This document shows positions 4,809-24,089 of a stretch of DNA of 32,000 bases, in pieces (the stretch's first letter is position 1; every line of letters begins with the position of its first letter). The notes beneath the pieces were generated by a model. It was not told the DNA's origin, made no database searches, and was given only the letters and a program-made list of their open reading frames with translations. Origin of the DNA: Candidatus Nanoclepta minutus. Lineage in GTDB: Archaea > Nanobdellota > Nanobdellia > Nanobdellales > Nanobdellaceae. The stretch spans positions 68,886 through 100,885 of the forward strand of contig MWMI01000003.1 in the NCBI GenBank assembly GCA_003568775.1. The letters run 5' to 3'. Both the position numbers and the translations under genes were made by a program.

Positions 4809-4846
4809 TATATTTAAATATATGATTATAGAGAATTATAAATATA

Positions 4847-6720: not shown

Positions 6721-6735
6721 AATAAAAAAGGAAGA

Positions 6736-7524
6736 ATGACCTTAGATGCAGTTATATTAGCTGGGGGTTTTGCTAAGAGGTTGAGGCCAATATCAGACGT
6801 TATGCCAAAACCTTTGCTACATATAGATGGAGTACCGTTAATAGAGTATGTATTGAGGTCTGTATTGGAGGTAGACCATAGGAGGATTATAGTTTCTACT
6901 AACAAGAAGTTTGAGAACTCTTTTAGATATTGGCTAAAGAATGTAACAAAGACTTACAATAGCAACATTAAGATATTCCTATCAATAGAACCCTCTACTG
7001 CAGAAGAGGAGAAATTAGGGGCTATAGGAGGATTATTATATACTATAAGGCTTTATAATATAGATATAGATAATGCAGACGTCTTAGTTGTCTTGGGAGA
7101 TAACTTATTTGACTTTGATCTAAAGCCTTTCGTTAGTTATGCTAGAAAGATGGGGAAAGTTGTAATTGGAGCCTATGATGTAGGTAGTAAGGATTTGGCG
7201 AAGAGGTATGGGGTAATAGAGGTTGACAATAATGGAAGAGTAGTTAGCTTTGAGGAAAAACCAAAGGATCCGAAGTCTTCTCTAATATCCGTTGGCATAT
7301 ATTATATTCCCAACAGTAAAATAAAGAAAATAGAGGATTTCATAAGCGAATATAAAAATGCGGATGCAATTGGAAAGTTCTTTGAATGGTTGGTAAAAAC
7401 AGATGATGTTTATGGTTATGTATTTAAGGGTAATTGGTTTGATATAGGTACACCAGATTCATATATAGAAGCTGATAGGTGGGCATCTGAAAGGAACTTG
7501 GGTAGAAGGTGGTTGTGGCCATAA
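6736..7524 (+). CDS. Sugar-1-phosphate nucleotidyltransferase (NDP-sugar pyrophosphorylase family)
   Basis: The N-terminal motif AVILAGGFAKRLRPISDVMPKPLL is a variant of the GGxGTRLxPLTxxxPKPL consensus. YGVIEVDNNGRVVSFEEKP matches the typical central motif. Confidence 0.8.
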   Translation: MTLDAVILAGGFAKRLRPISDVMPKPLLHIDGVPLIEYVLRSVLEVDHRRIIVSTNKKFENSFRYWLKNVTKTYNSNIKIFLSIEPSTAEEEKLGAIGGLLYTIRLYNIDIDNADVLVVLGDNLFDFDLKPFVSYARKMGKVVIGAYDVGSKDLAKRYGVIEVDNNGRVVSFEEKPKDPKSSLISVGIYYIPNSKIKKIEDFISEYKNADAIGKFFEWLVKTDDVYGYVFKGNWFDIGTPDSYIEADRWASERNLGRRWLWP

Positions 7525-7557
7525 GTTTTTAATTCATTTTTATATTAAATCTTCTAT

Positions 7558-7631
7558 GGGCCCGTAGCTCAGCTTGGTAGAGCGTCGGGCTTTTAACCCG
7601 AAGGTCGGGGGTTCAAATCCCCTCGGGCCCG
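7558..7631 (+). tRNA. tRNA-Lys (anticodon UUU), intronless, CCA not encoded
   Basis: I folded a 74-nt cloverleaf by hand. Acceptor GGGCCCG/CGGGCCC, D-arm GCTC...GAGC, anticodon stem TCGGG/CCCGA with loop CTTTTAA, T-arm GGGGG-TTCAAAT-CCCCT, discriminator G. Confidence 0.9.
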
Positions 7632-7643
7632 CTAAGGGTTATG

Positions 7644-7652
7644 TTTTTTGTT
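7644..7652 (+). terminator. Oligo-T tract (TTTTTTGTT) 13 nt downstream of tRNA-Lys; likely archaeal terminator
   Basis: A T-run lies immediately after the tRNA 3' end. Archaeal RNA polymerase terminates at oligo-T tracts. Confidence 0.4.
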
Positions 7653-7759
7653 AAAATCATGAATTGATTGTAGATCAAGAGGCAATATAGCATGATATTA
7701 TGAAAGATCTGTAGACCATTTCTTTTAAAATTTTTTATAATTTTTTTAAAAATAATTTA

Positions 7760-8440
7760 ATGGAGTATCCTCTTTCTTTGTCTGAGCAGATTAAGTTTTT
7801 AAAAGAAAATCCAGAATTTTTTAAGGGATTTGGAAAATATACAGAGCCTTATAATGGTAAGTTAGTAGATAAAATAGTAGAAAAAGTAAGATCTGATAAA
7901 GTTCCTCTGTGGGGATTAGAAAACGAGATGAGAAAATATTTTAGAAAAGTGAAAGTCGAAGTATCATATATTCTTCCAGTAAAATATATGGAGGATCACC
8001 AAATAGTAGGCGGATGTACAGAGTTTGCATTATTAACGGCAGCTATATTAAGAAAATTGGGGTATCCGACAGCAATTTTATATGCAGTAAAAGTAAATAA
8101 TGTATTTCAAGATCCAATTAAGGGTGGAGGCCTGGAGGGGCATGCCGTTAACTTAGTATATAAGGATGGTTCATGGTGGCTACTGGATTCTACTAGTACA
8201 ATAGAAAGTCCAACTAAATTTATTTTTACAAGATTATTCTATAATGGATACCTACCAGGTTTAATAATGAAGGATCCTGCAGATCTAGGTATAAAGAATA
8301 GACAAGACGAATATTTTTACGCTTTATATAATCTTGAGGATGTATTGCTATTAGCTCTACAGGAGGATATTATAGATCCCAAAAAGTTATTTATACAAGG
8401 AGTATACAAAAAAAAGATTGAAGAGCAAGCTAAACAATAA
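7760..8440 (+). CDS. Transglutaminase-like cysteine protease-fold protein
   Basis: A candidate Cys-His-Asp triad occurs in typical context: GGCTEFALLTAAILRKLGYPTAI ... GHAVNLVYKDGSWWLLDST. This resembles the transglutaminase-core consensus G.C.EFA....ALLR..GIPAR...HAW.EVY..G.W...D.T. Confidence 0.65.
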   Translation: MEYPLSLSEQIKFLKENPEFFKGFGKYTEPYNGKLVDKIVEKVRSDKVPLWGLENEMRKYFRKVKVEVSYILPVKYMEDHQIVGGCTEFALLTAAILRKLGYPTAILYAVKVNNVFQDPIKGGGLEGHAVNLVYKDGSWWLLDSTSTIESPTKFIFTRLFYNGYLPGLIMKDPADLGIKNRQDEYFYALYNLEDVLLLALQEDIIDPKKLFIQGVYKKKIEEQAKQ

Positions 8441-8745
8441 TTTAAATTTTTATAATACTATCCGAGGTTATTAAGGTAAGAAAAAGAATGAAAGTTACTA
8501 TTTAAGATGGAAGAAATATATGATATATTAAAAAAGTTTGGATATGAAAAGGAATTAGAAGAATATTCTAAAATTAAAAATACATTTATATGGCAAATAT
8601 CTGTTAAACCTGAGGAAATTGTGGGGATTCAGAAAAACATTAGATAGCCTTTCATACATGGAATGGGTAGCTAAGGAAAACGAAAAATTGTTGAACTCTA
8701 TATATAGCAAAATTACGAAACGTTCAAATGAAGAATATTAGCTAA

Positions 8746-9075
8746 AGAAAACTTAGTAAAAATATAATCTTCTATATTAATATAGAGCTAAACAAATATC
8801 GAAAAGAAGCTCAAAAGGCTGCAAGATATCTAAAGAAATTAAACGGCTATTATTATCTGGCTTTGGCATTAGCTGGAGAAGTAGAAGAGTTATTCAATCT
8901 TATAAAGAAAATTGCTAGGGATGATATGTAGTCTGATAGAGGGAAAATATTGAGCGAATTAGGAGATATATCGTGGTATACATCAGAATTGACAAAGCAA
9001 TTCAGTTTTACTTTAGAAGAAGTAATAAGATATAATTTAGAAAAGTTAAGAAAAATATATTTAGAAAAAATTTAA
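8746..9075 (+). pseudogene. MazG-like nucleotide pyrophosphohydrolase remnant (no start codon, one in-frame TAG)
   Basis: The frame reads ...YYYLALALAGEVEELFNLIKKIARDDM*SDRGKILSELGDISWYTSELTKQFSFTLEEVIRYNLEKLRKIY. This matches MazG motifs (LAL.GE.GEL...; ELGD..WY...LA). The in-frame TAG is at 8929-8931. A TAA lies upstream at 8743-8745, and no ATG/GTG/TTG follows it in this frame before the MazG-like motif region. Confidence 0.6.
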
Positions 9076-10412
9076 GGATATAGCCATCCTTCCCTTAACC
9101 TTGGGAACGGTAACGTATCTCTAACATGTTCTAACTTACATACCCACATAGTAAACCTTTCTAATCCTAGACCCCATCCAGAATGGGGTACTGAACCATA
9201 TTTTCTTAAATCTAAATACCATTCATATGCGTTTATTTCTTCGTCCCCTATCTTTACCTTTAATTTATCCAATCCCCATTCCTTTATCTTACTCTCCAAT
9301 ACCTCATACCTCCATTCCCTCTCGGATCCTCCTATTATTTCTCCATACCCTTCGGGCGCTAATAGATCAAAGTTCTTAACGGTTCCATCACCTGCCTCAT
9401 ACATATAGAAGGCCTTTACCTTTCTTGGATAGTTGGTTAGGAATATTGGCACATCGAATTCCATTGCTAATTCCCTCTCTTCATCAGCACCCAAATCATC
9501 TCCATACTTTATGTTTAATCCCTTCTTCTGTAAGATCTTTATTCCATCTTCATATTTTACTACCTTCCATGGTTTTTCAACAAAGCCTTTTAATTCTTCT
9601 ATCTTTCTTCCAGTATTCTTTTCTAGTATTTCAAAATCACTTTTTCTTTCCTCAATAGTCTTTTCTATAGAATACTTCAAGGCTTCCTCAGTTACCTTTA
9701 TTAAATCTTCTAGTCTCATCCATGCAGCTTCTATTTCAAAATGCCAATACTCATGTAAATGCCTTCTAGTCCTTGATTTTTCTGCTCTAAATGATGGGGT
9801 TAATGAAAATACCTTTTCCAAAGAATATATCAGTGCTTCTAGGTATAGCTGTGCGGATTGTGATAGGTATGCCTTATCCCCAAAGTAGTTTACCTCAAAT
9901 AGTGTTGTAGTTTCCTCACAGGCGTTTCCAACCAGTATGGGGGGATGTACTTCATACCATCCATCTTTTATGAACCATTCCCTTAAGTTCTTTAGTAAAG
10001 AATGCTTTATCTTTAATACAGAAGTAAACCATCTAGTCCTTACCCATAAGTATCTATACCTTTGTATGGTCTCTAGAGATTCTCCTCCCTTCAATGGGAA
10101 AGGTTGTCCGTAATCTACTACTTCCAAATCCGTTACTTCAATTTCATATCCACTTGGTGCTCTCTCATCTTTCCTCAGTATCCCCTTTATCTTTAAGGAA
10201 CCTTCTATCTGCATCCTTACTGCGTCATTCCAAACCCTTTCGCTAACCTTATCTTTTCTAATGACAGCCTGTATAATTCCTGTGGAGTCCCTAATAACAA
10301 AGAATACCTTATCTTTCATATCCCTCATCCTATAAATCCATCCTAAGATTTCTACTTCCTTCCCTACAAATTCTTCTTTTAAAAAATCGGCTATATAAGA
10401 AACTTTCATCAT
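9072..10412 (-). CDS. asnS: Asparaginyl-tRNA synthetase (class IIb)
   Basis: Class II motifs are present: SFRAEKSRTRRHLHEYWHFEIE and GSVPHSGWGLGLERFTMW...RDTLPFPR, with a terminal P. The PH.G.GLG.ER motif favours AsnRS over AspRS (PPHGG.G.GLDR). An OB-fold anticodon-binding N-terminus is present. Confidence 0.75.
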   Translation of the reverse strand: MMKVSYIADFLKEEFVGKEVEILGWIYRMRDMKDKVFFVIRDSTGIIQAVIRKDKVSERVWNDAVRMQIEGSLKIKGILRKDERAPSGYEIEVTDLEVVDYGQPFPLKGGESLETIQRYRYLWVRTRWFTSVLKIKHSLLKNLREWFIKDGWYEVHPPILVGNACEETTTLFEVNYFGDKAYLSQSAQLYLEALIYSLEKVFSLTPSFRAEKSRTRRHLHEYWHFEIEAAWMRLEDLIKVTEEALKYSIEKTIEERKSDFEILEKNTGRKIEELKGFVEKPWKVVKYEDGIKILQKKGLNIKYGDDLGADEERELAMEFDVPIFLTNYPRKVKAFYMYEAGDGTVKNFDLLAPEGYGEIIGGSEREWRYEVLESKIKEWGLDKLKVKIGDEEINAYEWYLDLRKYGSVPHSGWGLGLERFTMWVCKLEHVRDTLPFPRLREGWLYP

Positions 10413-10501
10413 GAATCTAGGAGTTCCGACAAGTTATCATAAAATTATATAATTTAAAATAATTTTAAAATCTTTTATTAATTCTGAAGATTAAAGAATT
10501 A

Positions 10502-12268
10502 ATGGCAATAAGGTCTCCGATTGTGGTTGTATTGGGCCATGTTGATTCTGGAAAAACATCATTATTAGATTCAATTAGACAAACATCCTTAACGGAAAAG
10601 GAAGCTGGTGGGATCACACAACATATTGGTGCTACCGAAGTTCCCATAGAGGTTGTGGAGAAGGTATCTAAACCTCTGATGGGTCTATTCAACTTTAGAC
10701 TTAATATACCGTCAATCCTCTTTATAGATACACCAGGTCATGAGGCTTTTAGTAATCTAAGGAAGAGGGGAGGATCCATTGCGGATTTTGCTATAATAGT
10801 TGTGGATGTAATTGAAGGTATTCAAAAACAAACGATAGAATCAATTGAGATATGTAAACAGTTTAAAGTACCTTTTTTAATTGCCTTAAACAAGATAGAC
10901 AGGATAGATGGATGGAAGCCTCAAAACACATATGTATTTTTGGATTCCATTAAGAAACAGGGTCAAAGGACTGCTGAGGAATTAGAAAAGAGGTTATACG
11001 ATGTTGTATATAAGTTATATGAGTTGGGTTTTGAATCTGAAAGGTTTGATAGGGTTAAAGACTTTAGGAGAGAGGTTGCGATAATACCTGTCTCTGCAAA
11101 GACAAAGGAAGGTTTAGCAGAACTATTACTAATAATATCTGGTTTAGTTCAGAGGTTTTTGGAAGAGAGATTAAAGATTGATGTAGAGGGTCCTGGGAAG
11201 GGTGTTATATTAGAGAGGAAGGAGGTTAAGGGGTTGGGTGATGTGATAGATGTAATTTTATATGATGGGAAGATAAAGAAAGGTGATAGAATAGCTTTTC
11301 TAACAAGAGAAGGTGTAAAGATAACTAATGTAAAGGCAATATATAAACCAGAAGCATTGAAGGATATTAGGTTTAAGACTAAGTTTTACGAAGTTGAAGA
11401 GGCTACTGCAGCATGTGGTGTTAGGATTTCTGGGGAAGGATTGGAAGAAGCAATACCAGGTTCGCATATATATGTGATTACCTCTGAAGAAGAGTTGAGT
11501 AAAATAAAGAGTGAGATTGAAAGGGAAGTTTCGGAGATAATATTTAGTACTGATAGAATAGGTGTTGTGGCAAAGGCAGATACCTTGGGAACCTTAGAAG
11601 TTTTGATAAAAATATTAAAGGAAAATAACATTCCTGTTGCTAGATCTGATATAGGAGATATAACAAAGGAAGATATAATGTTTGCATATTCAGTTAAAGA
11701 GAAGAAGCCTGAGTATGGAATAATAATTGGGTTTAATGTAAAGGTTGATAAGAATGCTGAAGATTTCTTAAAGAGTTATAATATAAGGGTTATTTTGGGA
11801 AACGTTGTCTATAGAATGATTGAGGATATTCAGAACTATGTAAATGAGTTAACAAAGAAGAAGTTACCTAGTGATCTACCATCCGTTGCAAAGATAAGGA
11901 TTTTGCCAGGTAATGTATTTAGGAGGAGTAGTCCGGCAATCGTTGGTGTTGAGGTTTTAGCAGGTGAGTTGAGAAAAGATGTTTATTTGATGAGGGAAGA
12001 TGGAAAGGTTATTGGAAAGGTTTTATCAATACAGTATGAAAAGAAGAACCTAGATAATGCAAGGAAAGGTGATAAAGTTGCTGTAAGCATTGATGATGCA
12101 GTAGTTGGAAGGAATGTAGAAGAAGGAAATATTTTATACACGTTTTTATTAGAGGATCAGTTTAGGAAATACAAGGAATATAAGGATATGTTGAGTGAGG
12201 AGCAGAAGGAAGTTTTGAGGGAAATAGCTAATATAATGAGAAAGACTAATCCTGCCTGGGGTTTGTAA
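10502..12268 (+). CDS. infB: Translation initiation factor aIF5B (IF2 homologue)
   Basis: G-domain motifs are present: VVVLGHVDSGKTSLLD, DTPGH, LNKID. The 588-aa length and the C-terminal beta-barrel/helical architecture are typical of aIF5B. Confidence 0.95.
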   Translation: MAIRSPIVVVLGHVDSGKTSLLDSIRQTSLTEKEAGGITQHIGATEVPIEVVEKVSKPLMGLFNFRLNIPSILFIDTPGHEAFSNLRKRGGSIADFAIIVVDVIEGIQKQTIESIEICKQFKVPFLIALNKIDRIDGWKPQNTYVFLDSIKKQGQRTAEELEKRLYDVVYKLYELGFESERFDRVKDFRREVAIIPVSAKTKEGLAELLLIISGLVQRFLEERLKIDVEGPGKGVILERKEVKGLGDVIDVILYDGKIKKGDRIAFLTREGVKITNVKAIYKPEALKDIRFKTKFYEVEEATAACGVRISGEGLEEAIPGSHIYVITSEEELSKIKSEIEREVSEIIFSTDRIGVVAKADTLGTLEVLIKILKENNIPVARSDIGDITKEDIMFAYSVKEKKPEYGIIIGFNVKVDKNAEDFLKSYNIRVILGNVVYRMIEDIQNYVNELTKKKLPSDLPSVAKIRILPGNVFRRSSPAIVGVEVLAGELRKDVYLMREDGKVIGKVLSIQYEKKNLDNARKGDKVAVSIDDAVVGRNVEEGNILYTFLLEDQFRKYKEYKDMLSEEQKEVLREIANIMRKTNPAWGL

Positions 12269-12309: not shown

Positions 12310-12870
12310 ATGAAGAAGGAAAGGATATTGAGAGTATTAGGAATGAAAAGGGTTGTTAGTTTTGGAGATCTAGTTAGAGAGAGTAATGTATCAAAATCCT
12401 ATTTATCAGAATTTTTGAAGGTTTTAAGAGAAAGAGGGTTGATATTAATGGGAGAAAGCATTAAAGTTACAGATTTAATAGAATTCTTAAGGTTTTGGGG
12501 TGAGAAAAAAAGGAAAATATTGAAGAGAATTAATTCCTTTTTAACAGATACCCTATTTATTAACGATTTCTTATCTGTTTTATCTAATAAGGATTATGTT
12601 TTGTCAGGACAGTTTGTAGAAAATTTAATTACAAAACAGAGCTCAGGTATATCTCTATGGGTATATGTTTTTGACGAAAATACTTATTTGGAACTAATGA
12701 GGGGTTTTAGTAAGAAGAGGAGTGGAAGGATAAAGGTAATGTTCTATGATGATCATATAAAGTATGGTAGTAGCTTTCTTCAAGGATATAGGATAGTAGC
12801 TTTAGAGCAATTAGCAGCAGATTTAATTGCAGAGGGCATATTTACCGATATAAAGGTATTGTTAAAATGA
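12310..12870 (+). CDS. wHTH transcriptional regulator, AbiEi-like (putative antitoxin/regulator)
   Basis: The N-terminus ILRVLGMKRVVSFGDLVRESNVSKSYLSEFLKVLRERGLI is a winged helix-turn-helix. The C-terminal domain (YVLSGQFVENL...YRIVALEQLAADLI) resembles AbiEi-type partners. The stop overlaps the next ATG (ATGA). Confidence 0.5.
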   Translation: MKKERILRVLGMKRVVSFGDLVRESNVSKSYLSEFLKVLRERGLILMGESIKVTDLIEFLRFWGEKKRKILKRINSFLTDTLFINDFLSVLSNKDYVLSGQFVENLITKQSSGISLWVYVFDENTYLELMRGFSKKRSGRIKVMFYDDHIKYGSSFLQGYRIVALEQLAADLIAEGIFTDIKVLLK

Positions 12871-13532
12871 TTGAGGATTTCTATAAATATTCCAAAATCT
12901 CTTGGGAGTATTTGGATGAGATATGGAGAAAAATAAGGGGAGAAAAGATGTTAATAGGAGGATGGGCAGTTCATTTATTGGTAAATGATGGATTAAAGAT
13001 AAATAAAAGAAAGGAATATATTGGATCTAAAGATATAGATTTGTTTGTAGAAGATTTAGAAAGAGTTTTTGATATTTTAGTTAGTTTAGGGTTTGAAAAA
13101 GAAGATAATAGGTTTTTTAAAGAAGAAAGAGATTTTAAAATTTTTGTAGATGTTTTTAGCCCAGGAAATACTCCGGATCCTCTAATGGAATACGCCTTTA
13201 TAAACAATTATAAGTTAAGGATAAATAATTTTATAGTACCCTACCCAGAATTCTTAATAGTGTCGAAGATAAATACAATATTAGTTAGGGGTATGAAAGA
13301 GAAAAGAATAAAGGATATTTTAGATTTACTTATGCTAATTTCCTTTTCAAAATACGATATTGATTTGATAAAGGATTTAATTAGAAAACATAACGTTTAT
13401 ATTTCTTCCTTTGTCATAAAGGAAATAGAAGAGAACTCATATGTTTTAAAATACTTTAATTTTGATGATAAAGAAATAGAAAGCTTAATTAAAATTTTAG
13501 AAAGAGTTCTATTATATGGAAGAAACCCTTAA
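12867..13532 (+). CDS. Pol-beta-fold nucleotidyltransferase, AbiEii/DUF1814-like (putative toxin)
   Basis: LIGGWAVHLLV...YIGSKDIDLFV matches the GG.A...(G)S.DIDL nucleotidyltransferase signature. The C-terminal PEFLIVSKINTILVRGMKEKRIKDILDLLML resembles the AbiEii helix motif (K..A...R...KD..D...L). Confidence 0.55.
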   Translation: MIEDFYKYSKISWEYLDEIWRKIRGEKMLIGGWAVHLLVNDGLKINKRKEYIGSKDIDLFVEDLERVFDILVSLGFEKEDNRFFKEERDFKIFVDVFSPGNTPDPLMEYAFINNYKLRINNFIVPYPEFLIVSKINTILVRGMKEKRIKDILDLLMLISFSKYDIDLIKDLIRKHNVYISSFVIKEIEENSYVLKYFNFDDKEIESLIKILERVLLYGRNP

Positions 13533-14238
13533 ACTAATTAAAGAAACTATTCTCAACGTTGCAAAGGAATATAATGTTGAAATAGATAAAATAATCCTGT
13601 TTGGATCTAGGGCAAGAGGAGATTTTAGGGAAGATTCCGATTGGGATATATTAATTGTAACTAAGGAGAAAATGGATAGAGAAAAGGAATCAGATTTTAG
13701 ATTGAAAATTGTTTTAGAACTTCATAATTTTTTAAATCAAGATATAGAGATAATAATTGTAGATAAAAGGACTTTTGAGGAATATAAAACTCCAGCTTAT
13801 GTATATTATTATGCGGAAAAAGAAGGAAAACTTTTATGGTATAGTAGGGTTTATGAGGACGTTAAAAATCTTTTAGAAATGGCTATGGAAAATTTAAAAG
13901 TTGTAGATTATCTTAAATCTAAAGAGTTTTATTATCATATATGTCTTCATTGCTCATGGGCTGTTAGAGATTTATTAAAGGCTTTTTTAATATTTAATCA
14001 ATTAAACTTTTCAAAACCAAATGATATAGTTGAACTAGTAAAGCTATGTATGGAATTTGATAGGGATTTTAGGGAAGAATTCCAAAATTATATGGATGTT
14101 TTTGAAAAGTTGAAAGGGTATGATATTTTATTTAAAAGATCTGAACTCTTTGATGTAAGTAAAGAAGAAGCTCAGAGGATAATTGAAATTACTGAAAGAG
14201 TTAAAGAATTTATATTAAATAAAATTAAGCTAGAATAA
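13516..14238 (+). CDS. Fused minimal nucleotidyltransferase (MNT) and HEPN domain protein
   Basis: The N-terminus ILFGSRARGDFREDSDWDILIV is the classic MNT motif (GSxxRGxxxxxSDxDxL). The C-terminal half (AMENLKVVDYLKSKEFYYHICLHCSWAVRDLLKAFL...KGYDILFKRSELFDVSKEEAQRIIEITERVKEFI) matches HEPN (PF05168-like) helices. It overlaps the upstream gene by 17 nt. Confidence 0.75.
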   Translation: MEETLKLIKETILNVAKEYNVEIDKIILFGSRARGDFREDSDWDILIVTKEKMDREKESDFRLKIVLELHNFLNQDIEIIIVDKRTFEEYKTPAYVYYYAEKEGKLLWYSRVYEDVKNLLEMAMENLKVVDYLKSKEFYYHICLHCSWAVRDLLKAFLIFNQLNFSKPNDIVELVKLCMEFDRDFREEFQNYMDVFEKLKGYDILFKRSELFDVSKEEAQRIIEITERVKEFILNKIKLE

Positions 14239-15884
14239 TGATAACTAGTTTAATAGAAGATCCTAATCTAATAGGTAATAAAGCAGCGAATCTATCCAAA
14301 TTTAGGGGTCTGTTGAATATTCCCAAATCCCTTGTAATTACTACAGAAGCTTTTAGAGAATATATTAAAGATAAAAGTTTTTTAGATAAATTAGTTGAAT
14401 ATTTGGATGATAGTTTAAGTGATTTTAAAAGACCTTTAATATTTAGGAGTTCTTCAACAGTTGAAGATACTCCTGAAAAATCCTATGCAGGTGTATTTAA
14501 ATCTGTTTTAAATGTTTATACAAAAGAAGATATGAAAGAGGCCATTAAGGAAATATATGAGGATTTCTTAAGGAAATCTAGAGAAGATATTGCGATATTA
14601 GTTCAGGAACAGTTTACTAAGGGTAAGTTTGGTGTAATGTTTGGATTTGATGATAAAATAGTCTTAGAAGTTACTTTAAACGATCCGACAGGTATTACTA
14701 GTGGAAGGGCAAAAATAAAGGATTTATACATTATAGATGGAGAAAATGCTTATGTTTATAATAATAAGAATTGGAAGATATTATTTGATTTAGAAATAGA
14801 AAAAATAAAAGAAGCTGATGGGAAGATAAAAAATGTAATTTATCCATATGATGTAGAATTCGTTGTTTATAAAGGGGATTTCTATTTATTACAGGTAAGA
14901 CCTTTACATAAAAAACCAGAATTTAGAATCGGTACTAGTAATTTGTATGGTGTCGGAGTTTCCAGTGGAAAGGTTATGGGAAGGGTTTCCTTTTCTGAAG
15001 ATAATAAGGGAGTAGATAAGATCCTAGTTATAGATGAGGTTCCTTTTGATGAGATAGAAAAAGTAAAGGAATTTGGGGGCATAATAATAGAGATAGGAAG
15101 TTTATTATCCCATATAGCAATCCATATGAGAGAGTATGGAATACCAGCAATTGTTGGAGTTCCTATAAAATATTTCAGAGAAGGAGAGTTGATTGAAATG
15201 GATGGAAGCACTGGAGAAATAAAGTTTTTGGATAGAAGAGGTTTTGAGATATCTAGAATTGAAAGAGAAATAGAAATTTATGATCCTAAAATGTTAAGAT
15301 TGCTTATAGTAGATAAGTATGCTTTTGTTTTATATCCAAAAGATGGGTATAGCATTCTGTTTTATAGAGATAGTAGAGGGTTAGACTATGTTTTGAGGAT
15401 TTCTGAGGATCCTTTAGTAGACGGAGGAGTAGATAGTTGGCATACGTATGTGACTATTTTAGAGTTATCTCTATTGGATTCTGAAGTAAGGGGAGACTTT
15501 GAAAGGGTAATTAAAGCTATAGAAGAAGCCAATATGGAAAAAATAGAGAAATTGTATGGGGAATTAAAGAATAAGATTTCAAGATATTATAGAGAAGCTG
15601 AAATGAAAGAAGATTTATATTTAGTCGAAAAGACATATGCTTATATAAGGTTGGTAAGAAATGTATTACTATTCGAATATGGACAAAAGTTGATGAACAA
15701 TCCAAAATTTATGGAATTAGTAAAAAAGGATGAAGGAGAAAGATTACCCGAACTCTATAAAATATATGAGCTATTCGATAAGTTATATGATAGAATCGAA
15801 AAAGAACATGGACTAAAAAAGATGGATTATACATCTTACTTAGCTTTCCAAATAGATATTCTTAAGAAGGAGAGTAAGGTATAA
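14238..15884 (+). CDS. PEP-utilising-enzyme family protein: PPDK_N-type ATP-grasp plus phosphohistidine swivel domain, no PEP/pyruvate TIM barrel, unknown C-terminal domain
   Basis: IGNKAANLSKF and LIFRSSSTVEDTPEKSYAGVFKSVLNV match the PpsA/PPDK N-terminal motifs (GGKGANL; RSSATAEDLP.ASFAGQ). The swivel motif GGIIIEIGSLLSHIAIHMREYGIPAIVG is present, with the candidate phospho-His codon at 15111-15113. The last ~218 aa are K/E/Y-rich and helical-looking with no family I recognise. The ATG shares one nt with the upstream stop (TAATG). Confidence 0.75.
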   Translation: MITSLIEDPNLIGNKAANLSKFRGLLNIPKSLVITTEAFREYIKDKSFLDKLVEYLDDSLSDFKRPLIFRSSSTVEDTPEKSYAGVFKSVLNVYTKEDMKEAIKEIYEDFLRKSREDIAILVQEQFTKGKFGVMFGFDDKIVLEVTLNDPTGITSGRAKIKDLYIIDGENAYVYNNKNWKILFDLEIEKIKEADGKIKNVIYPYDVEFVVYKGDFYLLQVRPLHKKPEFRIGTSNLYGVGVSSGKVMGRVSFSEDNKGVDKILVIDEVPFDEIEKVKEFGGIIIEIGSLLSHIAIHMREYGIPAIVGVPIKYFREGELIEMDGSTGEIKFLDRRGFEISRIEREIEIYDPKMLRLLIVDKYAFVLYPKDGYSILFYRDSRGLDYVLRISEDPLVDGGVDSWHTYVTILELSLLDSEVRGDFERVIKAIEEANMEKIEKLYGELKNKISRYYREAEMKEDLYLVEKTYAYIRLVRNVLLFEYGQKLMNNPKFMELVKKDEGERLPELYKIYELFDKLYDRIEKEHGLKKMDYTSYLAFQIDILKKESKV

Positions 15885-15914: not shown

Positions 15915-16307
15915 ATGGCTAAGAAGGAAAGGGGAAGTATATATAAGATAGTCGTATCTGATCCAAAAACTGGAAAAGCTGTTCAAATAGATTATAAAGG
16001 AGACTTCTTCTTAGGTAAGAAAATAGGGGATAAGGTTCCGGGTGATGTTATAGGATTGAGCGGTTATGAATTGGAGATAAGGGGTGGATCTGGATTTGAG
16101 GGTGCACCAATGGTTGATTTTATAGAGGGACAAGTAAAGAAATACGTCTGGTGGAAGGATAAAGAGGGAAGGTATAAAAAGTTAGTTAGGGGTAATGCAG
16201 TTTCTCCAGAGGTAGTTCAGGTAAATACAATAATAGTAAAGTATGGAGATAGACCTTTTGAGGAAATATATAACGAGTTTAAGGCTAGGAAACAGCAGAC
16301 TTCATAG
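15915..16307 (+). CDS. rps6e: 30S ribosomal protein S6e
   Basis: KIVVSDPKTGKAVQIDYKG...LGKKIGDKVPGDVIGLSGYELEIRGGSGFEGAPM matches the S6e consensus. The 130-aa length is typical for archaea. Confidence 0.9.
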   Translation: MAKKERGSIYKIVVSDPKTGKAVQIDYKGDFFLGKKIGDKVPGDVIGLSGYELEIRGGSGFEGAPMVDFIEGQVKKYVWWKDKEGRYKKLVRGNAVSPEVVQVNTIIVKYGDRPFEEIYNEFKARKQQTS

Positions 16308-17340
16308 TCATATATCTTTCTCTTAGTTTTATTATTTGATCTATTTTTGATCTCGATCTATTATATAAGTTTTCTAATTTTTCTTTAGTAATTCCATTAG
16401 ATATATAGAAGGAATCTAAACCTTCTTCTCTTCTCTTTGTTATCTCTGCCGTAAGGGCTAAATATGTAAATATTTGCGGTATTTTTATTTCTTTTTTAGT
16501 TGGATCTCTTAATAATTGTGAATAAAATATGTTTTGGAATATTGTTATTAATTCAGGAGCAGGTACTATGATTGGGAAACTTGGATAACCTTTTCTAGTT
16601 TCTAATAAGTTCATGGTTAATAATGCTTGATATCCTTGTCTTCCTATAATGTTCGGATAATAATACTTTCCCTTATACTTTATTTTCCTTAATCCATGAT
16701 ATGTATCGAATTCTCCAGATCCATTGACCTCAAAATCTCCTTGGTTTTGATATCCTTTAAGGATAACTCTATCATATCCTATTCTCTTTGGGAACGAGGG
16801 AATCTTTATTTCAAATTCGTTTATATATTCCCCATTTTTCATTGGAGGTTCTTTTTGAACTGGTTTGTCTTTATTAATTACTAAATAGAGATATGCTTCT
16901 GGTATGTCTATTAAAGGTATTTCATAGGCTTTGCTATCAGAAGAAATTAGAATAATCGAGTATGGATAATTTATTCTACCGTTTGGATTGTTTAATCTCT
17001 TTAAGATATTGTCTAACGAATTTGTAAAACCTTCAAAAGTTGGTAGGTTTTGTGATGGTACAATTCTTCTCTTCGCTCTAGAGATCAATATGATTGGATT
17101 ATAATAATACTTTCTGTTTTCTTTCTTTCCTCCGCATATCGTTTCATGTATTTCCGTAGGTACTCTTTCCCTTACTTTTTCTTTAAAATCTTCTTCTATT
17201 CTTTCTACTAATTCGTAATGTATATTACCATTTGGTTTTTCTAGAGCAGGTAAAAGGTATTTTATTCTTTTATTTATGGTTTCTTCGATTATTTCATCGA
17301 GGAGGGGTTGGGCTTGCTGAAGTGCTTCTATGTATCTCAT
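16285..17340 (-). CDS. Hypothetical protein, 351 aa, soluble, no family recognised
   Basis: Long uninterrupted ORF with host-like codon usage. An A/T-rich, TATA-like region lies upstream (17341-17420). The 3' end overlaps rps6e by 23 nt. Confidence 0.5.
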   Translation of the reverse strand: MRYIEALQQAQPLLDEIIEETINKRIKYLLPALEKPNGNIHYELVERIEEDFKEKVRERVPTEIHETICGGKKENRKYYYNPIILISRAKRRIVPSQNLPTFEGFTNSLDNILKRLNNPNGRINYPYSIILISSDSKAYEIPLIDIPEAYLYLVINKDKPVQKEPPMKNGEYINEFEIKIPSFPKRIGYDRVILKGYQNQGDFEVNGSGEFDTYHGLRKIKYKGKYYYPNIIGRQGYQALLTMNLLETRKGYPSFPIIVPAPELITIFQNIFYSQLLRDPTKKEIKIPQIFTYLALTAEITKRREEGLDSFYISNGITKEKLENLYNRSRSKIDQIIKLRERYMTMKSAVS

Positions 17341-17420: not shown

Positions 17421-17903
17421 ATGAAGATTAGAGGTGTATCTCCTTTAATTGCAACTATAATACTTATTGCTTTGACCGTGTCAATTGGTGCTATAATAGT
17501 TGGATGGGGAAGGAGTTATATTCAAAAACAGATGATATGTGCTGGAATGAGTGCTTCTTTAAATTATAAAAACTATAGCTATAGTGGTGGGAATAATCCG
17601 AAAATTATTTCTTTCGATATTTTAAATAGCGGGGAATCGGTAATAAACTTACGAAATGCGTATATTAAAATTACCTCTATTGATGAAACGTCTGATATAT
17701 GTTCGTATGGTACGGGGGGGTGTAGTTTTGTTGAGACATTGGGAAGCAATAATATAGTGCCTAGTAATTTTACATCGATATCTCTAACGGTAACAAGTAT
17801 ATCTCCTATTTATAACAAGCTTTCAGGTGCAACAGTGGAGTTATATGATAAAACATGTAATACACTATTAGCAAGTACTATACTTCCATATTCTATTTCT
17901 TAA
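17421..17903 (+). CDS. Archaeal type IV pilin-like protein (DUF1628-type N-terminus)
   Basis: The N-terminus MKIRG|VSPLIATIILIALTVSIGAIIVG matches the archaeal class III signal peptide consensus ([KR]G-VSPVIA...). Confidence 0.7.
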   Translation: MKIRGVSPLIATIILIALTVSIGAIIVGWGRSYIQKQMICAGMSASLNYKNYSYSGGNNPKIISFDILNSGESVINLRNAYIKITSIDETSDICSYGTGGCSFVETLGSNNIVPSNFTSISLTVTSISPIYNKLSGATVELYDKTCNTLLASTILPYSIS

Positions 17904-20438
17904 ATCTAAAACAATTGTAATGATAAATAGAAAAGAAAATAAGGAAAATAAATCCAAAACTTTCCAAGGATATCTATATTCCAGTTCAAGTATCCAAGTA
18001 CCTTTAGAAATCTCAAGTTCAATAGTACCTGCAAATTCATTTTTCCTTATTGGGATTTCTTTTCCATTTAGTTTTGCCCCCCAGTAAGGATAATCGTTTT
18101 CACTTATAGAGATCGTAGCTGCAGAGTCTGTAGATATTATAACAGTAATCTTTTCGTTTGTAAGTTGAGAAATCCAATATTTGAAGTTAGATTTTAAATG
18201 TTGTGCTATAAGATTCCTCAAAATGCTTTGCTCATATTGATTGTTTTTAACAATAGAGTGATAGAATAGACTTAGACCTATAAAGTATATTCTCCCATTT
18301 CCAATTTCTTTGTATCCTAGTACCGTATAATTTTCATATTTTATCAGCGGAATTAAGTCTCCAGAATAGGTAGTACTAACCCAGTAGTTTCCATTATCTT
18401 CAAATTCGCTGAATTTCTCCATATCATACATATCTGAGGGCAGATCTAATTTACCTTTTACTTTTATAACGGTAGAATTCACTCCAAGAATGCTATTTTC
18501 CATATCTGATGAGAGAAAAGTATCTACAAAAACTATTCCTCCTTCTCTAATAAACCTCTCTAGTATTTTCCAGACAGAAGAATTTGTATAGTGATAACTA
18601 TATAGGAAAATTATTTTATAGTTTTTGATTTCGTTATAAGTTAAGCTATCTAGGTTATTGATTATAGTACAATTCTTAGTTTCTAAGCAATTACTCAAAT
18701 TTTCTCCTAAGAATGTTGATCGGATTAATATATCTTTTATAGCGTTTTCGCTTCCGATAAATAAAATTTTAGTGGAGGTATTCTCAATTATTATGAAGGT
18801 ATTGTTATCTCTATAGAATAAAGCAAATCTTGGAGATTCACATATTTTTCTAAATCCTATTTTCTCTATTACATTTGAGAAGACACTATATGGTAACATC
18901 CAATTGTACTTATCTAGAATTATGTAATTTACTGAAAAATGAAGTAAATAATTGCTCAAGAGGTTATAGTGAAATTCAGATACATTTGGATATGTTGAAA
19001 GGATATCTCTATATATGATATGGTATAATTTTGAGCGAGATAATAAATTAATATCTCCTTGCCAGTACCAACCTCTTAGGATTGGGATATTTTTAATAAT
19101 GGCAGGATAATATGCTGTTGCGGATCCAATTGCTAATTCTACACTAGGTTGATATAGCCTACTTCCTTCTAGGTTATCTATGCAGTTTAATATGTTAGTA
19201 TACTCTTTTATCATGGAATCAAAATATTTTTCATCCTCAACGGATATCGGGTATTTGAGGGAAAAATCTGCTAAAATAATTAAGAGAATTGCTATTATTA
19301 ACAAAGCTTTTACATTTTTTTGAACTTTAATCTCTTCAATAGAAGATATTAATAGAGCAAAACCAATTAAGGAATAAAAGTTTGCTCCGTCAATCCATCT
19401 CTCAGGATGAATATTCGCTATAATTGGCAAATAATATAACTCCCTAATTGGATTATAGTACCCTAATGCTAAAAATACGAAGAAAAATATTATTAATAAG
19501 GAATTTATCGAAAATATTTTTAGATCAGTTTTAATATCTTTTCTTAAGAGGAAAAGTATATAACCAAGTAATCCGAGAATAAACAAAATTCCTACGTAGT
19601 ACTTATTGGAGATATCAAATAGGTTTTCTATGTATACACTATGAAATTGAAAAGTCGGTGGTTCTTTATAAAAATAAAAGGTGTTATAGTATTTCATCTG
19701 TAATAAGAAGGGAATTGTCCAAAATGCTGTTAATGAAATAAAAGAAGCAGAAAATACAAGGATGTTTTTTGCAAAATTCTTTAGTGATAAATTTCTGATA
19801 TAACTTATGTAGAGATATGGGAATAAAATAACAATAGAAAAAGCGAATATTATAAAGATCATTAAGTGGGATAAGAATAAAGCTGATAAAAATATAGAAG
19901 AAAGTAAAACTTTTTTGATATCTTTGTATTTAACTAAATAAATTACCCCTAACATTCCTAATGGTAATAACATATTAGCAAAAAATCTTGTAATCGCTCC
20001 ACATAATCCAACAACATAATAAAGTATCCAAATAGATAGAGGATATAGTAATGAAGATAAATAAATTGATATTCCTTTAAATCTTAATTCTCTTAATAAA
20101 AACCTCATTGAATACGCTCCAATTAACATACCAATCAATATAGTCAGCTTATATCCTAATACATCAGAGTTAACTATTTTTCCAATTAATGCCCCAACAA
20201 AATAGGATAGGGGGGAATAAAAAGTAAGAAAAGGATCTCCACCATGCCAGTATCTGGTCCATTTAACATAGCCATCATTCATAAGTTCCCATATTTTAAA
20301 CAAATGACCATAAGCATCTCCACCCCGTCCCGGTAAATATGGACTTTTGAATACGGGATAAAGAATAAAAGAGTAGACTACTAATAAAGTGAGCAAGTAA
20401 GCTATTTCAAAGAGCAGTTTTCTATATTTATACTCCAT
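17868..20438 (-). CDS. Large polytopic membrane protein, GT-C-fold glycosyltransferase/polymerase-like (PTPS-related membrane family), with a C-terminal extracellular domain
   Basis: 856 aa. About 12-14 TM helices occupy the first ~400 aa. The N-terminal motif PGRGGDAYGHLFKIWEL...WHGGDPFLTFYSPLSYF resembles archaeal GT-C-like membrane proteins. It is the last gene of the glycan operon. Confidence 0.5.
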   Translation of the reverse strand: MEYKYRKLLFEIAYLLTLLVVYSFILYPVFKSPYLPGRGGDAYGHLFKIWELMNDGYVKWTRYWHGGDPFLTFYSPLSYFVGALIGKIVNSDVLGYKLTILIGMLIGAYSMRFLLRELRFKGISIYLSSLLYPLSIWILYYVVGLCGAITRFFANMLLPLGMLGVIYLVKYKDIKKVLLSSIFLSALFLSHLMIFIIFAFSIVILFPYLYISYIRNLSLKNFAKNILVFSASFISLTAFWTIPFLLQMKYYNTFYFYKEPPTFQFHSVYIENLFDISNKYYVGILFILGLLGYILFLLRKDIKTDLKIFSINSLLIIFFFVFLALGYYNPIRELYYLPIIANIHPERWIDGANFYSLIGFALLISSIEEIKVQKNVKALLIIAILLIILADFSLKYPISVEDEKYFDSMIKEYTNILNCIDNLEGSRLYQPSVELAIGSATAYYPAIIKNIPILRGWYWQGDINLLSRSKLYHIIYRDILSTYPNVSEFHYNLLSNYLLHFSVNYIILDKYNWMLPYSVFSNVIEKIGFRKICESPRFALFYRDNNTFIIIENTSTKILFIGSENAIKDILIRSTFLGENLSNCLETKNCTIINNLDSLTYNEIKNYKIIFLYSYHYTNSSVWKILERFIREGGIVFVDTFLSSDMENSILGVNSTVIKVKGKLDLPSDMYDMEKFSEFEDNGNYWVSTTYSGDLIPLIKYENYTVLGYKEIGNGRIYFIGLSLFYHSIVKNNQYEQSILRNLIAQHLKSNFKYWISQLTNEKITVIISTDSAATISISENDYPYWGAKLNGKEIPIRKNEFAGTIELEISKGTWILELEYRYPWKVLDLFSLFSFLFIITIVLDLRNRIWKYSTC

Positions 20439-20473
20439 AGTAGTAATAAATAAATATATACTTATAAATATTT

Positions 20474-21790
20474 TTAATGAGAGATTTTATAAGTTCTTTG
20501 ACCTCCTTTGGCTTTCTCTTTTATATATTTTACAGCTCCTAATGAAGTAAAAACTAAAGTATATAGAGGAACATAGAGGGAATAAACAAATAGATCCTTC
20601 AGTTCTAATCTTAGATTTTCATTATTTATATTGTTTTTATACAAAAGATAAATTGTATATAAGTACCCAGCTAATGCACCAGTAATTTGTAAAATATGAG
20701 AAAGAGGATCGTTATTTACGAAAAGACTGCTAATGTAAAAAGGTAATGCTATATATATTCCGCCAAAGAGCTTTACTGTGTCTTTAAACTTATCAAACAC
20801 TTTTTCTCTTAAGTTTCTTTTAGATATTAAGTATTGAGAAGCTATTAAAGAGGGATAAGATATGGTTAGGGCAGTTCTTAGGGGAGGAATGGGTAATAGA
20901 GCGGCATATAACAGAGGGCCTATTAAGAAGTATGAGGCATGTAGGGGATTATTAAAACAGTTTTTTGGATCTTCTAAACATACCCTATATCCACCATACT
21001 GCCAATAAGTCCTTTGCTTAATAAACTTCTTTGGATCGTTTATTAGCTCGGGATATAATATTAAATCTTCTGAAAATAGAATACCTTTTCCATCTTTTCT
21101 TACTAAAAATGTCATCTCATAATCGTCTCCAGCATGTTTTCCAGAATGATTTTTCAATACTCTCTTTAAATCTTCCGTTCTCCAAAGAGATGCTGTCCCA
21201 TTTACATATATTCCCTCTCCTGCAGCTTTTCTAGCATTACTAGTTACTACAGTGTGCTCCACGTGTTGTATATAATCTAGGAAATTTTTCCTTAATAAGT
21301 TATCTAGGTTATCTTCTTTCCTTTTTGATTCGAAAGATTTATGGAAGCTTTTAATATCTTCTTTTATCTCTTTCAAAACGTTTTCGGGTAAATACCTCTG
21401 ATTTGCAGTAGGGTAAACCATTACTGGAAAATCTTCATTTAGCCTTTCACAGTTTTCTTTCAATATTTCATCTAACCCTTTTCCATTATTTGGTACAGGT
21501 ATTACATCATCATCTTGAATAAAAACACATTTTGGATTATACTCTTGAATGATATGTTCTAATCCATAATGTAAGGCATCGATTTTTCCCCCGTTTTCTT
21601 TTCTCAAAACTTTTGCATAACCGTTTTTTTCTATTAACTCTAAAACCCCGTTTGTATCTTCTCTCTTCGATCCATCGTTTACAACTATAATAGGATTTCC
21701 CGTATGTTTATGGAGGTAAGATACAGTAGTATAGAGGGTTGTAGGAGATGTATTATATACAGGAATTATAATAGGAATTGCGCTTTTCAT
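20474..21790 (-). CDS. Family 2 glycosyltransferase with C-terminal TM helices (synthase-like)
   Basis: PIIIPVYNTS...VVNDGSKRED...FIQDDDVIP are GT2 DxD-type motifs. KQRTYWQYGG is a variant of the processive-synthase QxxRW motif (Tyr in place of Arg). About 4 TM helices follow. Confidence 0.8.
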   Translation of the reverse strand: MKSAIPIIIPVYNTSPTTLYTTVSYLHKHTGNPIIVVNDGSKREDTNGVLELIEKNGYAKVLRKENGGKIDALHYGLEHIIQEYNPKCVFIQDDDVIPVPNNGKGLDEILKENCERLNEDFPVMVYPTANQRYLPENVLKEIKEDIKSFHKSFESKRKEDNLDNLLRKNFLDYIQHVEHTVVTSNARKAAGEGIYVNGTASLWRTEDLKRVLKNHSGKHAGDDYEMTFLVRKDGKGILFSEDLILYPELINDPKKFIKQRTYWQYGGYRVCLEDPKNCFNNPLHASYFLIGPLLYAALLPIPPLRTALTISYPSLIASQYLISKRNLREKVFDKFKDTVKLFGGIYIALPFYISSLFVNNDPLSHILQITGALAGYLYTIYLLYKNNINNENLRLELKDLFVYSLYVPLYTLVFTSLGAVKYIKEKAKGGQRTYKISH

Positions 21791-22392
21791 TCTTCGATAA
21801 ATCTTATAATTTCAAAGCCTTCTGCATAGTTAACTCCATTTATAAATCCATGGTATTTGTTTATTCCTAGAATAGTTTCTTTCTTTAAGAAATCTTTATG
21901 ATTTTGAGATCTAAATATTTCCAATATCTTTATCTTTTCTTCTATAAACTCTGATATATCAACAAAATAAGAGGGATGGAAGTTATTATATGTTAAAGGA
22001 GCCCAAAATGACAATATTTGTTTTACTTTTCTTCCAGCAATTTTTACAGCTTCTGCAGTAGTCCTATGATCTTGGTGAGAGTCTGATAAACTATGAGTAT
22101 ATATTCTGTTTGGTTTAAATTTGTTTATTAAATCCTCTAAAACATCTTTTATTTCAATAAGCTTTTCGTAAAACCTTGTATCTGGGAAATTAAATAAGAA
22201 GTAATCAGATATCCCTAAATAGTTAATTACTTCTAAAAGTTCTTTTTCTCTTTCTTTTGAATCTCCACCTTTTTCTCCTCTTGATAGAATTATATATATT
22301 ACCTTATCCCCATTTCTTAAATGCTTTAGTAAAGTTCCTCCCGCCCCTAACTCTATATCGTCCGGATGAGCACCAATAAACATTACGATCAT
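21787..22392 (-). CDS. PIG-L/LmbE-family N-acetylglucosaminyl deacetylase
   Basis: FIGAHPDDIELGAGGTLLK is the AHPDDxExGxGGT signature. HSLSDSHQDHRTT is the second His/Asp metal motif. The gene has 4-nt overlaps at both ends. Confidence 0.85.
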   Translation of the reverse strand: MIVMFIGAHPDDIELGAGGTLLKHLRNGDKVIYIILSRGEKGGDSKEREKELLEVINYLGISDYFLFNFPDTRFYEKLIEIKDVLEDLINKFKPNRIYTHSLSDSHQDHRTTAEAVKIAGRKVKQILSFWAPLTYNNFHPSYFVDISEFIEEKIKILEIFRSQNHKDFLKKETILGINKYHGFINGVNYAEGFEIIRFIEE

Positions 22393-23941: not shown

Positions 23942-24089
23942 ATTAATATGATACTACTGAAGGGTTATAAATTTTATTATTATCATAAGGTAGTGAATAT
24001 CTCCATTTTCAATAGAAAGAATAATGTTTTTTAAGATCTTTCTTAGAGTTCCTAAATAAAAAATATATCGTTTCTAACCAATCCATTAT

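Follow-up and report, generated by a model that had tools for sequence, protein, structure and literature searches.

The enzymes closest in design to the protein described here are the phosphoenolpyruvate (PEP) synthase PpsA (EC 2.7.9.2) and PPDK (EC 2.7.9.1), which combine an ATP-grasp nucleotide-binding domain and a swivel domain with a phospho-carrier histidine with a PEP/pyruvate-binding TIM barrel (PF02896). Rifampin phosphotransferase (RPH) and the PRK06241-type enzymes (the PigC/HapC/RedH prodiginine ligases and flavonoid phosphate synthetase) are also ATP-grasp and swivel-His enzymes; RPH-type enzymes phosphorylate or activate a non-pyruvate oxygen acceptor, held in a dedicated, largely helical domain, by a swivelling-domain mechanism (PMC4844700). 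VadK (Mycobacterium tuberculosis Rv1127c) is a barrel-less PPDK derivative that was long misannotated as a central-metabolism dikinase and that still functions as a His autokinase, in a non-PEP role (PMC13400623). Here, we analysed a 32,000-nucleotide stretch of Candidatus Nanoclepta minutus (GCA_003568775.1, contig MWMI01000003.1, positions 68,886 to 100,885 of the forward strand; hereafter, the window) and focused on one gene, whose 548-residue product (the target protein) carries the ATP-grasp and swivel domains, lacks the barrel and ends in a family-specific C-terminal domain (C-domain) of ~215 aa. Coordinates are collected in Table 1.

Domain architecture and catalytic residues

A first-pass annotation of the window had proposed a PpsA/PPDK-like enzyme in which an unassigned domain replaces the barrel. 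The reading frame was confirmed at exactly the position given there; its ATG shares one base with the TAA stop of the gene upstream (TAATG, 14236-14240), and homologues aligned with the target protein from Met1. In Pfam, PPDK_N (PF01326) matched with an E-value of 9.9e-21 (74.8 bits against a cutoff of 27), and PEP-utilizers (PF00391) matched residues 261-326 with an E-value of 8.4e-14 (51.4 bits against a cutoff of 23.1), both matches lying far outside chance. In the PDB sequence search, the swivel domain of RPH-Lm aligned with residues 236-332 of the target.

The nucleotide-binding and swivel motifs were present where the first-pass annotation had placed them: IGNKAANL at residues 12-19, FRSSSTVEDTPEKSYAGVF at residues 69-87 and GSLLSHIAIHMREYGIPAIVG at residues 287-307. 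The alignment with canonical PpsA revealed that the ATP-grasp residues G13, K15, R70, S71, S72, E76, D77, Q123, D205, E207, Q219 and R221 are invariant, as are H292 and R298-E299 on the swivel side. His292 furthermore varied neither among the homologues, the most distant of them at 34% identity, nor in a group of ~630-aa relatives described below, so the target is no decaying paralogue with a dispensable swivel His. Up to the Q-x-R-P motif, the target has 225 aa, where its ~630-aa relatives have 264-289 aa and canonical PpsA proteins have 317-350 aa, which bears out the compact ATP-grasp domain noted at first and makes it ~100 aa shorter than that of PpsA/PPDK. The shortening consists of deletions in a helical insert and a hairpin, and the catalytic positions are untouched. 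With the catalytic residues and His292 invariant, His-phosphotransfer chemistry has very probably been retained, as first proposed.

The C-terminal domain has a modelled fold without relatives in PDB or BFVD

The absence of barrel motifs after residue ~330, another early observation, held throughout: PF02896 gave no match to the target even at E <= 10 in Pfam, and no barrel motif had a counterpart in the alignment with canonical PpsA. In place of the barrel, the target carries a non-homologous domain of beta and helical elements, with 13% L, 12% E, 10% K and 9% Y over residues 332-548. Residues ~332-548 had no match in Pfam (even at E <= 10, with noise only: PhoU 0.26, G1_gp67_N 0.62), NCBIfam or PADLOC, and none of the PDB sequence matches to the target reached beyond residue ~346.

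Structure models were built with AlphaFold2 on shallow alignments (6 sequences). The model of residues 329-548 alone reached a predicted local distance difference test score (pLDDT) of 87.2 and a predicted template modelling score (pTM) of 0.84. The modelled domain starts with a linker; four beta-strands and one helix then form a small unit (~354-397), and a helical bundle (~399-546) completes it. The order is three successive beta-strands, a short helix, a fourth strand and the bundle, and the domain contains no (beta/alpha)8 barrel. A Foldseek search of PDB and BFVD with this model returned nothing below E 0.1, the highest TM-score being 0.34, for designed helical repeat proteins (PDB, BFVD). 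When the C-domain profile was compared with PDB sequences, de novo helical designs alone were found, which is a compositional effect. As modelled, the C-domain is a fold without a relative in PDB or BFVD. In the full-length model (pTM 0.39), the swivel domain had a pLDDT of ~68-84, and the model was too uncertain for placing the C-domain relative to His292.

A divergent TIM barrel, raised in the first-pass annotation as the outcome that would speak against its reading, was excluded by the modelled strands and bundle, by Foldseek, by the PDB profile search and by hhalign, which gave a probability of <=1% against canonical PpsA. A relocated RPH middle domain was likewise excluded as the origin of the C-domain, with hhalign probabilities of <1% against the middle domains of the RPH-type proteins P0009, P0010 and P0014 and no Foldseek match to the RPH structures 5fbs and 5hv1. 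An insignificant alignment of 'LVDGGVDSWH' over the swivel sequence 'LVERGSILSH' had raised the idea of a second, degenerate swivel domain with H402 as the phospho-His; it was rejected because residue 402, His in the target and in the distant homologue P0008, is Tyr in the ~630-aa subgroup, and PF00391 had no match there in Pfam. A PqqD-like recognition element for peptides made on the ribosome and modified after translation (RiPPs), formed by the beta unit and the next helices, had no Foldseek support and is not claimed.

The C-domain has a conserved signature, DGGVDSWHTYVTILE, where the last strand meets the first helix of the bundle, with the consensus G-x2-D-x-W-x2-Y-x4-E. The segment 'DGGxDxWHxY' was invariant in the alignment of full-length homologues, and G396, D399, W401, Y404, E409 and S533 were invariant in both the nanoarchaeal-type and the ~630-aa subgroups. 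An exhaustive hidden Markov model (HMM) search of 1.84e9 cluster representatives with the C-domain returned 8 proteins at E <= 1e-3. Seven of them (P0005, P0008 and five ~630-aa proteins) have PPDK_N and PEP-utilizers followed by the C-domain; the eighth, P0022, is a repetitive protein and was treated as a false positive. This search indicates that the C-domain occurs only behind the grasp and swivel domains, in keeping with the domain order first described. A word-indexed search with the C-domain alignment gave 0 matches and missed even family members, and the exhaustive HMM search is the valid test.

The target belongs to a rare and separate family

A word-indexed search of 5.8e9 proteins returned eight full-length homologues with 34-100% identity. 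A hypothetical protein of 'Nanoarchaeota archaeon NZ13-N' shares 99% identity with the target; nanoarchaeal-type homologues follow at 54-65% identity, including a Nanobdella aerobiophila protein that NCBI names 'phosphoenolpyruvate synthase', and the most distant full-length homologue is P0008 (559 aa, 34% identity). A search with the ~630-aa member P0017 yielded about 23 clusters of 623-658 aa, one of them from a Promethearchaeota metagenome-assembled genome (MAG). The next-best relatives of P0017 were canonical, barrel-containing PpsA proteins, at ~31% identity over exactly the 58% of the query made up of grasp and swivel. A neighbour-joining tree built on the grasp domain united the ~630-aa proteins, P0008 and the nanoarchaeal proteins in one clade (bootstrap 100), separate from PpsA and from RPH-like enzymes, within which the nanoarchaeal proteins were a subclade with 100% support. 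Most of the family is archaeal; a single sampled locus, L011, has a bacterial-looking context.

No NCBIfam model reached its cutoff for any family member tested. The PpsA, PPDK, RPH and PigC models matched the target over the grasp and/or swivel domains only, at scores roughly tenfold below cutoff. For the PpsA/PPDK models NF005057, TIGR01418 and TIGR01828, the target scored 66.5 against 598, 61.8 against 739.75 and 34.5 against 843 bits; for the RPH-type models NF041857, NF052631 and NF004882, it scored 56.7 against 999, 59.1 against 1300 and 87.5 against 850 bits.

RPH (5fbs) was the best PDB sequence match of the target (E 1e-14), but the two differ in domain order, as the first-pass annotation had pointed out. 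RPH has the order grasp, acceptor domain and swivel, and the swivel stands at the extreme C-terminus both in RPH-Lm (PDB 5fbs) and in the distant relatives P0009-P0012, P0014 and P0016, whereas in the target the swivel (236-330) follows the grasp directly and precedes the ~215-aa domain. The target shares with VadK the missing PEP/pyruvate domain, and it has every residue that ATP/Mg-dependent autophosphorylation of the swivel His, assayed for VadK (PMC13400623), requires; however, VadK stops after the swivel, whereas the target family carries a conserved and confidently modelled ~215-aa domain, and VadK is actinobacterial and PPDK-derived, whereas the target family is mostly archaeal and closer to PpsA/RPH. 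Judged from its sequence, the target is predicted to work in the manner of PpsA or RPH, but by their defining features it belongs to none of the PpsA/PPDK, RPH-type and VadK families. In terms of architecture and family definition, we are nearly certain that the target and its relatives are a rare, so far uncurated clade in the PpsA/PPDK/rifampin-phosphotransferase superfamily.

A decaying ppsA paralogue with a degenerate C-terminal sequence would also be shorter than PpsA, with a compacted grasp and a K/E-rich C-terminus, and one MAG copy of the gene (P0006, at locus L003) is frameshifted. However, the reading frame of the target is intact, the C-domain is modelled to fold confidently, and His292, the grasp residues and the C-domain signature are invariant in orthologues of 34-65% identity as well as in the ~630-aa group. 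A second PPDK_N-type gene in the P0006 MAG, which starts at 8207 and runs off the contig, is frameshifted too, so an assembly error is likely there. The conservation pattern effectively refutes decay, whose probability we regard as close to nil. The second gene is closer to the target family than to PpsA and is not classifiable further.

Pattern scans of contigs gave few matches. The genome-contig scan returned only Nanobdella and an unrelated Nealsonbacteria match, the metagenome-contig scan only the unrelated locus L015, and the viral-contig scan only a barrel-less grasp and swivel protein without the C-domain. The viral protein (417 aa, L016 5740-6993, on a 118-kb IMG/VR contig) consists of ATP-grasp and swivel-His domains alone; with neither barrel nor C-terminal domain, it has the architecture of mycobacterial VadK. 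Locus L015 carries at 3124-10847 four tandem paralogues of ~485-500 aa, each with an unassigned N-terminal region and a C-terminal swivel-His domain, and after them comes a separate gene for a lone PPDK_N ATP-grasp domain (312 aa). The arrangement resembles a split kinase of the RPH/Hpe type, whose single ATP-grasp subunit would serve four alternative acceptor subunits.

Relatives outside Nanoarchaeota close a radical SAM/SPASM cassette

We compared gene context at 12 loci. At 7 of the 8 loci outside Nanoarchaeota, a radical S-adenosylmethionine (rSAM)/SPASM maturase-like gene or a remnant of one lies directly upstream of the enzyme gene; the only locus without it is L011. A ~450-aa rSAM gene stands there at four loci and overlaps the start of the enzyme gene at three of them, including the locus of the compact P0008. 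Remnants at the other three loci correspond to the C-terminal part of the rSAM protein, and the enzyme gene is intact beside each of them, suggesting that the maturase has repeatedly been lost while the dikinase-like gene was kept.

The cassette rSAM proteins have a CxxxCxxC motif, a SPASM-type Cys-rich C-terminus (CPxxCGGGC with additional invariant Cys) and, at the N-terminus, a conserved extension of ~100 aa. In NCBIfam, they matched PapB ranthipeptide maturases best (E 2e-34, below cutoff), with many other peptide maturases ranking next, and they scored below every curated family cutoff. A small open reading frame (ORF) ends just before the rSAM gene at all three loci with an intact copy (L008, L009 and L013). 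These small ORFs are homologous and have in common the C-terminus CKRCxxP[K/R]-stop as well as an SP[W/F]N motif, and the differences between those of L008 and L009 fall 6/11/18 on the three codon positions, concentrated at the third. The cassette order is therefore a small Cys-containing peptide, the rSAM/SPASM maturase-like gene and, last, the enzyme gene. This layout of precursor-like Cys peptide, rSAM/SPASM protein and tailoring enzyme, with overlapping genes, resembles that of known rSAM/SPASM RiPP cassettes (e.g. PapB ranthipeptide, SCIFF), but neither the window nor any other nanoarchaeal locus sampled has the cassette. A tblastn search found no homologue of the cassette rSAM in the window, where the only rSAM gene is an unrelated methyltransferase fusion 10 kb off, and the C[KR][KR]C..P[KR]-stop motif was absent from the window and from the nanoarchaeal loci sampled. 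In the searchable literature, we found nothing that ties PEP-utilizing enzymes to rSAM/SPASM cassettes and no described RiPP class with a PpsA-type phosphohistidine enzyme.

Gene neighbourhood in the window and in other nanoarchaea

In the window, the target gene is the last of four genes that are chained by overlapping ends (12310-15884). The three genes upstream resemble AbiE-like and MNT-HEPN toxin-antitoxin modules stacked together, in a genome of very small size (Table 1). On this account, the target could act as effector or accessory enzyme in a defence or toxin-antitoxin module formed with the upstream helix-turn-helix (HTH) protein, AbiEii-like nucleotidyltransferase and MNT-HEPN protein, which match AbiEii, MntA/Polbeta nucleotidyltransferase and HEPN, and PADLOC PDC-S09 models in an unbroken chain. 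However, the target protein itself had no match in PADLOC, the upstream genes were found beside no homologue at any of the 11 other loci, overlapping gene ends are common in such compact genomes, and the C-domain had no tblastn match in phage and plasmid collections. Membership in a defence module is therefore very improbable, and the suggestion that the neighbouring nucleotidyltransferases might be phosphoryl acceptors found no support, since this neighbourhood is conserved at no other locus.

The neighbourhoods of the homologues also vary among themselves. AAA_14/DUF4143 and GT2 genes lie upstream of the Nanobdella homologue, and L003, L004 and L014 differ again. AAA_14/DUF4143 ATPase genes occur near the homologue at L001 (105-1415 and 3428-4615) and L014 (3-1202), with 63% identity between L001 and L014; they are the sole neighbour common to nanoarchaeal contexts, which may merely reflect their many archaeal paralogues. 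In the nanoarchaeal MAG at L003 (4775-8640), opposite-strand genes follow P0006; their products are a BpsA_C-like protein, a C39-like peptidase and, between them, a radical SAM protein of 328 aa with no relation to the rSAM of the cassette.

The window has a GC content of 31%, and its other genes include an aIF5B-type GTPase, ribosomal protein S6e, a class II D/K/N-type aminoacyl-tRNA synthetase, Kae1/TsaD and tRNA-intron endonuclease subunits. A 351-aa ORF at 16285-17340 on the minus strand had no match in Pfam or PADLOC, and its 3' end shares 23 bases with the end of the convergent S6e gene. The genes at 17868-25376, all on the minus strand, probably form a surface-glycan cluster; they encode an 856-aa PTPS_related multi-pass membrane protein, a GT2 glycosyltransferase, a PIG-L deacetylase, a HAD hydrolase, a Ter/PylC-type ATP-grasp enzyme and a sugar-nucleotidyltransferase fused to an HD domain. 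The radical SAM fusion mentioned above (25614-27371, 585 aa, TTG start) joins a radical SAM domain (residues 77-213) to a class I SAM methyltransferase (~400-480). At 28040-29025, two overlapping tRNA-intron endonuclease paralogues of 159 and 173 aa, one well conserved and one weak, are consistent with a heteromeric splicing endonuclease.

Table 1. Positions of the target gene, its domains, its upstream neighbours and the rSAM genes next to its relatives. Positions refer to the window or, for L loci, to the respective locus.
Feature	DNA	Positions	Strand	Basis or remark
Complete gene, predicted PpsA-like phosphohistidine phosphotransferase, 548 aa	window	14238-15884	+	ORF list, junction sequence, alignment with homologues
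Compact ATP-grasp (PPDK_N) nucleotide-binding domain, residues 1-228	window	14238-14921	+	Pfam PF01326, conserved residues
Swivel (PEP-utilizers mobile) phospho-carrier domain, residues ~236-330	window	14943-15227	+	Pfam PF00391, RPH-Lm alignment, model
His292 codon CAT, predicted phosphoryl-carrier His, motif GSLLSH	window	15111-15113	+	Sequence, alignments
Family-specific C-terminal domain, residues 332-548	window	15231-15881	+	AlphaFold2 model, profile and structure searches
C-domain signature, residues 395-409	window	15420-15464	+	Alignments; junction of last strand and first bundle helix
Winged HTH protein, 186 aa	window	12310-12870		Chain upstream of target
Weak AbiEii-like nucleotidyltransferase, 221 aa	window	12867-13532		Chain upstream of target
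MNT (Pol-beta nucleotidyltransferase)-HEPN fusion, 240 aa	window	13516-14238		Matches PADLOC candidate PDC-S09 and MntA antitoxin model
rSAM gene	L008	6631-8040		Directly upstream of enzyme gene, overlapping
rSAM gene	L009	4640-6001		Directly upstream of enzyme gene, overlapping
rSAM gene	L013	1161-2489		Ends 12 bases before enzyme gene, no overlap
rSAM gene	L004	2-748		Upstream of compact P0008, overlapping
rSAM remnant, 145 aa	L010	7571-8008		Same position as intact rSAM
rSAM remnant, 68 aa	L012	region 228-1783		Adjoins IS605 OrfB/TnpB gene
rSAM remnant, 40 aa	L007	7864-7983		Same position as intact rSAM

Discussion

The reading we favour, and to which we give reasonable though not high confidence, is that the target is an ATP-dependent phospho-His phosphotransferase for an acceptor other than pyruvate, in the ancestor probably a peptide. 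By analogy with the chemistry of PpsA, PPDK and RPH, ATP would occupy the grasp domain and His292 would be phosphorylated with release of AMP and Pi. The swivel domain would then bring the phosphoryl group to an oxygen nucleophile of an acceptor other than pyruvate, bound by the C-domain, in which D399, W401, Y404 and E409 are candidate acceptor-site residues. The first-pass annotation had assigned substrate specificity to the C-domain, where it probably resides; this view, with grasp and swivel retained and the barrel replaced, survived every test run. Since the enzyme gene closes a small-peptide and rSAM/SPASM cassette in the non-nanoarchaeal members, the ancestral acceptor was most likely a ribosomal peptide or its radical-SAM product, although for the cassette-linked relatives themselves the chances that the acceptor is a peptide seem to us evenly balanced.

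In Nanoarchaeota, the gene stands alone, in the window as elsewhere, with no partner genes nearby, and it is retained under selection in very small genomes. The target and the cassette-linked P0008 have a common C-domain signature that includes H402, which makes it likely that the nanoarchaeal chemistry is similar; that the type of acceptor is also the same in Nanoarchaeota as in the cassette relatives is doubtful.

Several findings weigh against the favoured reading. Residues 127-235 of the grasp domain had a pLDDT of <50 in the full-length model, and the integrity of the compacted grasp is read from sequence conservation alone. We infer the identity of the acceptor entirely, throughout the family. 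The bundle of helices might serve in docking or oligomerisation and hold no catalytic acceptor site. At three non-nanoarchaeal loci, the enzyme gene persists without an intact adjacent maturase, and neither the cassette rSAM nor the CKRC peptide occurs in the sampled DNA of the nanoarchaeal loci (the window, Nanobdella L001/L005, L003 and L014), so the inference from the cassette may not transfer to the target protein.

Some of these findings would suit a VadK-like regulatory phospho-His autokinase, in which the helical C-domain docks or oligomerises and the phosphoryl group passes to another protein, or the enzyme regulates one, with no peptide or small molecule as acceptor. VadK itself shows that a barrel-less grasp and swivel protein can be a functional autokinase with a regulatory role (PMC13400623). 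A helical bundle makes up most of the C-domain, for which no enzyme-like fold was an obvious match, and the nanoarchaeal members are stand-alone genes in variable neighbourhoods. In Enzyme I of the phosphotransferase system (PTS), moreover, a helical subdomain beside the swivel domain docks the protein acceptor HPr. However, kinship of the target with VadK/PRK05878 is limited to the superfamily domains (39.8 bits against a cutoff of 456), and in VadK no other domain replaces the one that was lost. In the relatives, the gene's close and translationally coupled linkage with a small peptide and an rSAM/SPASM maturase suggests peptide modification instead, and the invariant polar and aromatic residues D399, W401, Y404 and E409 resemble a binding or catalytic site more than a packing surface. 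We therefore consider a regulatory autokinase unlikely.

A genuine PEP synthase, in which the non-homologous domain has taken over pyruvate/PEP binding for the pyruvate-to-PEP step of gluconeogenesis in reduced genomes, would agree with the intact grasp and swivel halves of the PpsA reaction, with the NCBI name of the Nanobdella homologue and with the retention of the gene in genomes down to 0.67 Mb. Papers on Nst1, Nanopusillus acidilobi and YN1 count 'PEP synthase' as present and as a diagnostic gluconeogenic enzyme in host-dependent Nanoarchaeota, and terrestrial nanoarchaea are reported to have a highly expressed 'PEP synthase' together with other gluconeogenic enzymes (PMC4935971; PMC3655853). 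The Nanopusillus 'PEP synthase' is among the most abundant proteins and adjoins a glycosyltransferase gene (PMC4935971); the Nanobdella homologue of the target family has its GT2 gene just upstream. However, the published proteins (Nps_02680 and Nst1_343) are listed by arCOG and neighbours, with no length or sequence, and are no more than candidate members of the target family. The target itself lacks the PF02896 barrel with all its motifs, including the catalytic Cys; its replacement domain, as modelled, belongs to a different fold class; its scores against the PpsA/PPDK equivalog models are about 10-fold under cutoff; and relatives with the C-domain sit in rSAM/peptide cassettes, not in metabolic operons. 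A genuine PEP synthase is thus quite improbable, and the target probably does not have this activity.

The preferred phosphotransferase reading can be extended to an undescribed, mainly archaeal peptide-modification pathway, in which a phosphohistidine enzyme derived from PpsA would phosphorylate or activate a small Cys peptide cross-linked by the rSAM/SPASM protein. Thermophilic Nanoarchaeota would have kept only the kinase and retargeted it to a different acceptor, and the 'PEP synthase' of some metabolic reconstructions would be a target-type protein that makes no PEP. This extended proposal is tentative, and we hold it to be doubtful as a whole; if true, it would be the first ribosomal-peptide pathway with swivel-His dikinase chemistry. 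With its small Cys peptide, rSAM/SPASM protein and dikinase-like enzyme, the conserved cassette of the Promethearchaeota MAG and of further archaeal contigs makes a concrete candidate for a peptide-modification class that would be new.

For the superfamily, these results indicate that PpsA/PPDK/RPH enzymes diversify by exchange of the acceptor module: a barrel, a rifampin-binding domain or, in VadK, none, with the C-domain as a fourth solution. For nanoarchaeal metabolism, a protein without a pyruvate/PEP barrel should not count for the PEP-synthase step, and the inferred carbon metabolism of these symbionts would need revision if the cited 'PEP synthase' proteins belong to the target family.

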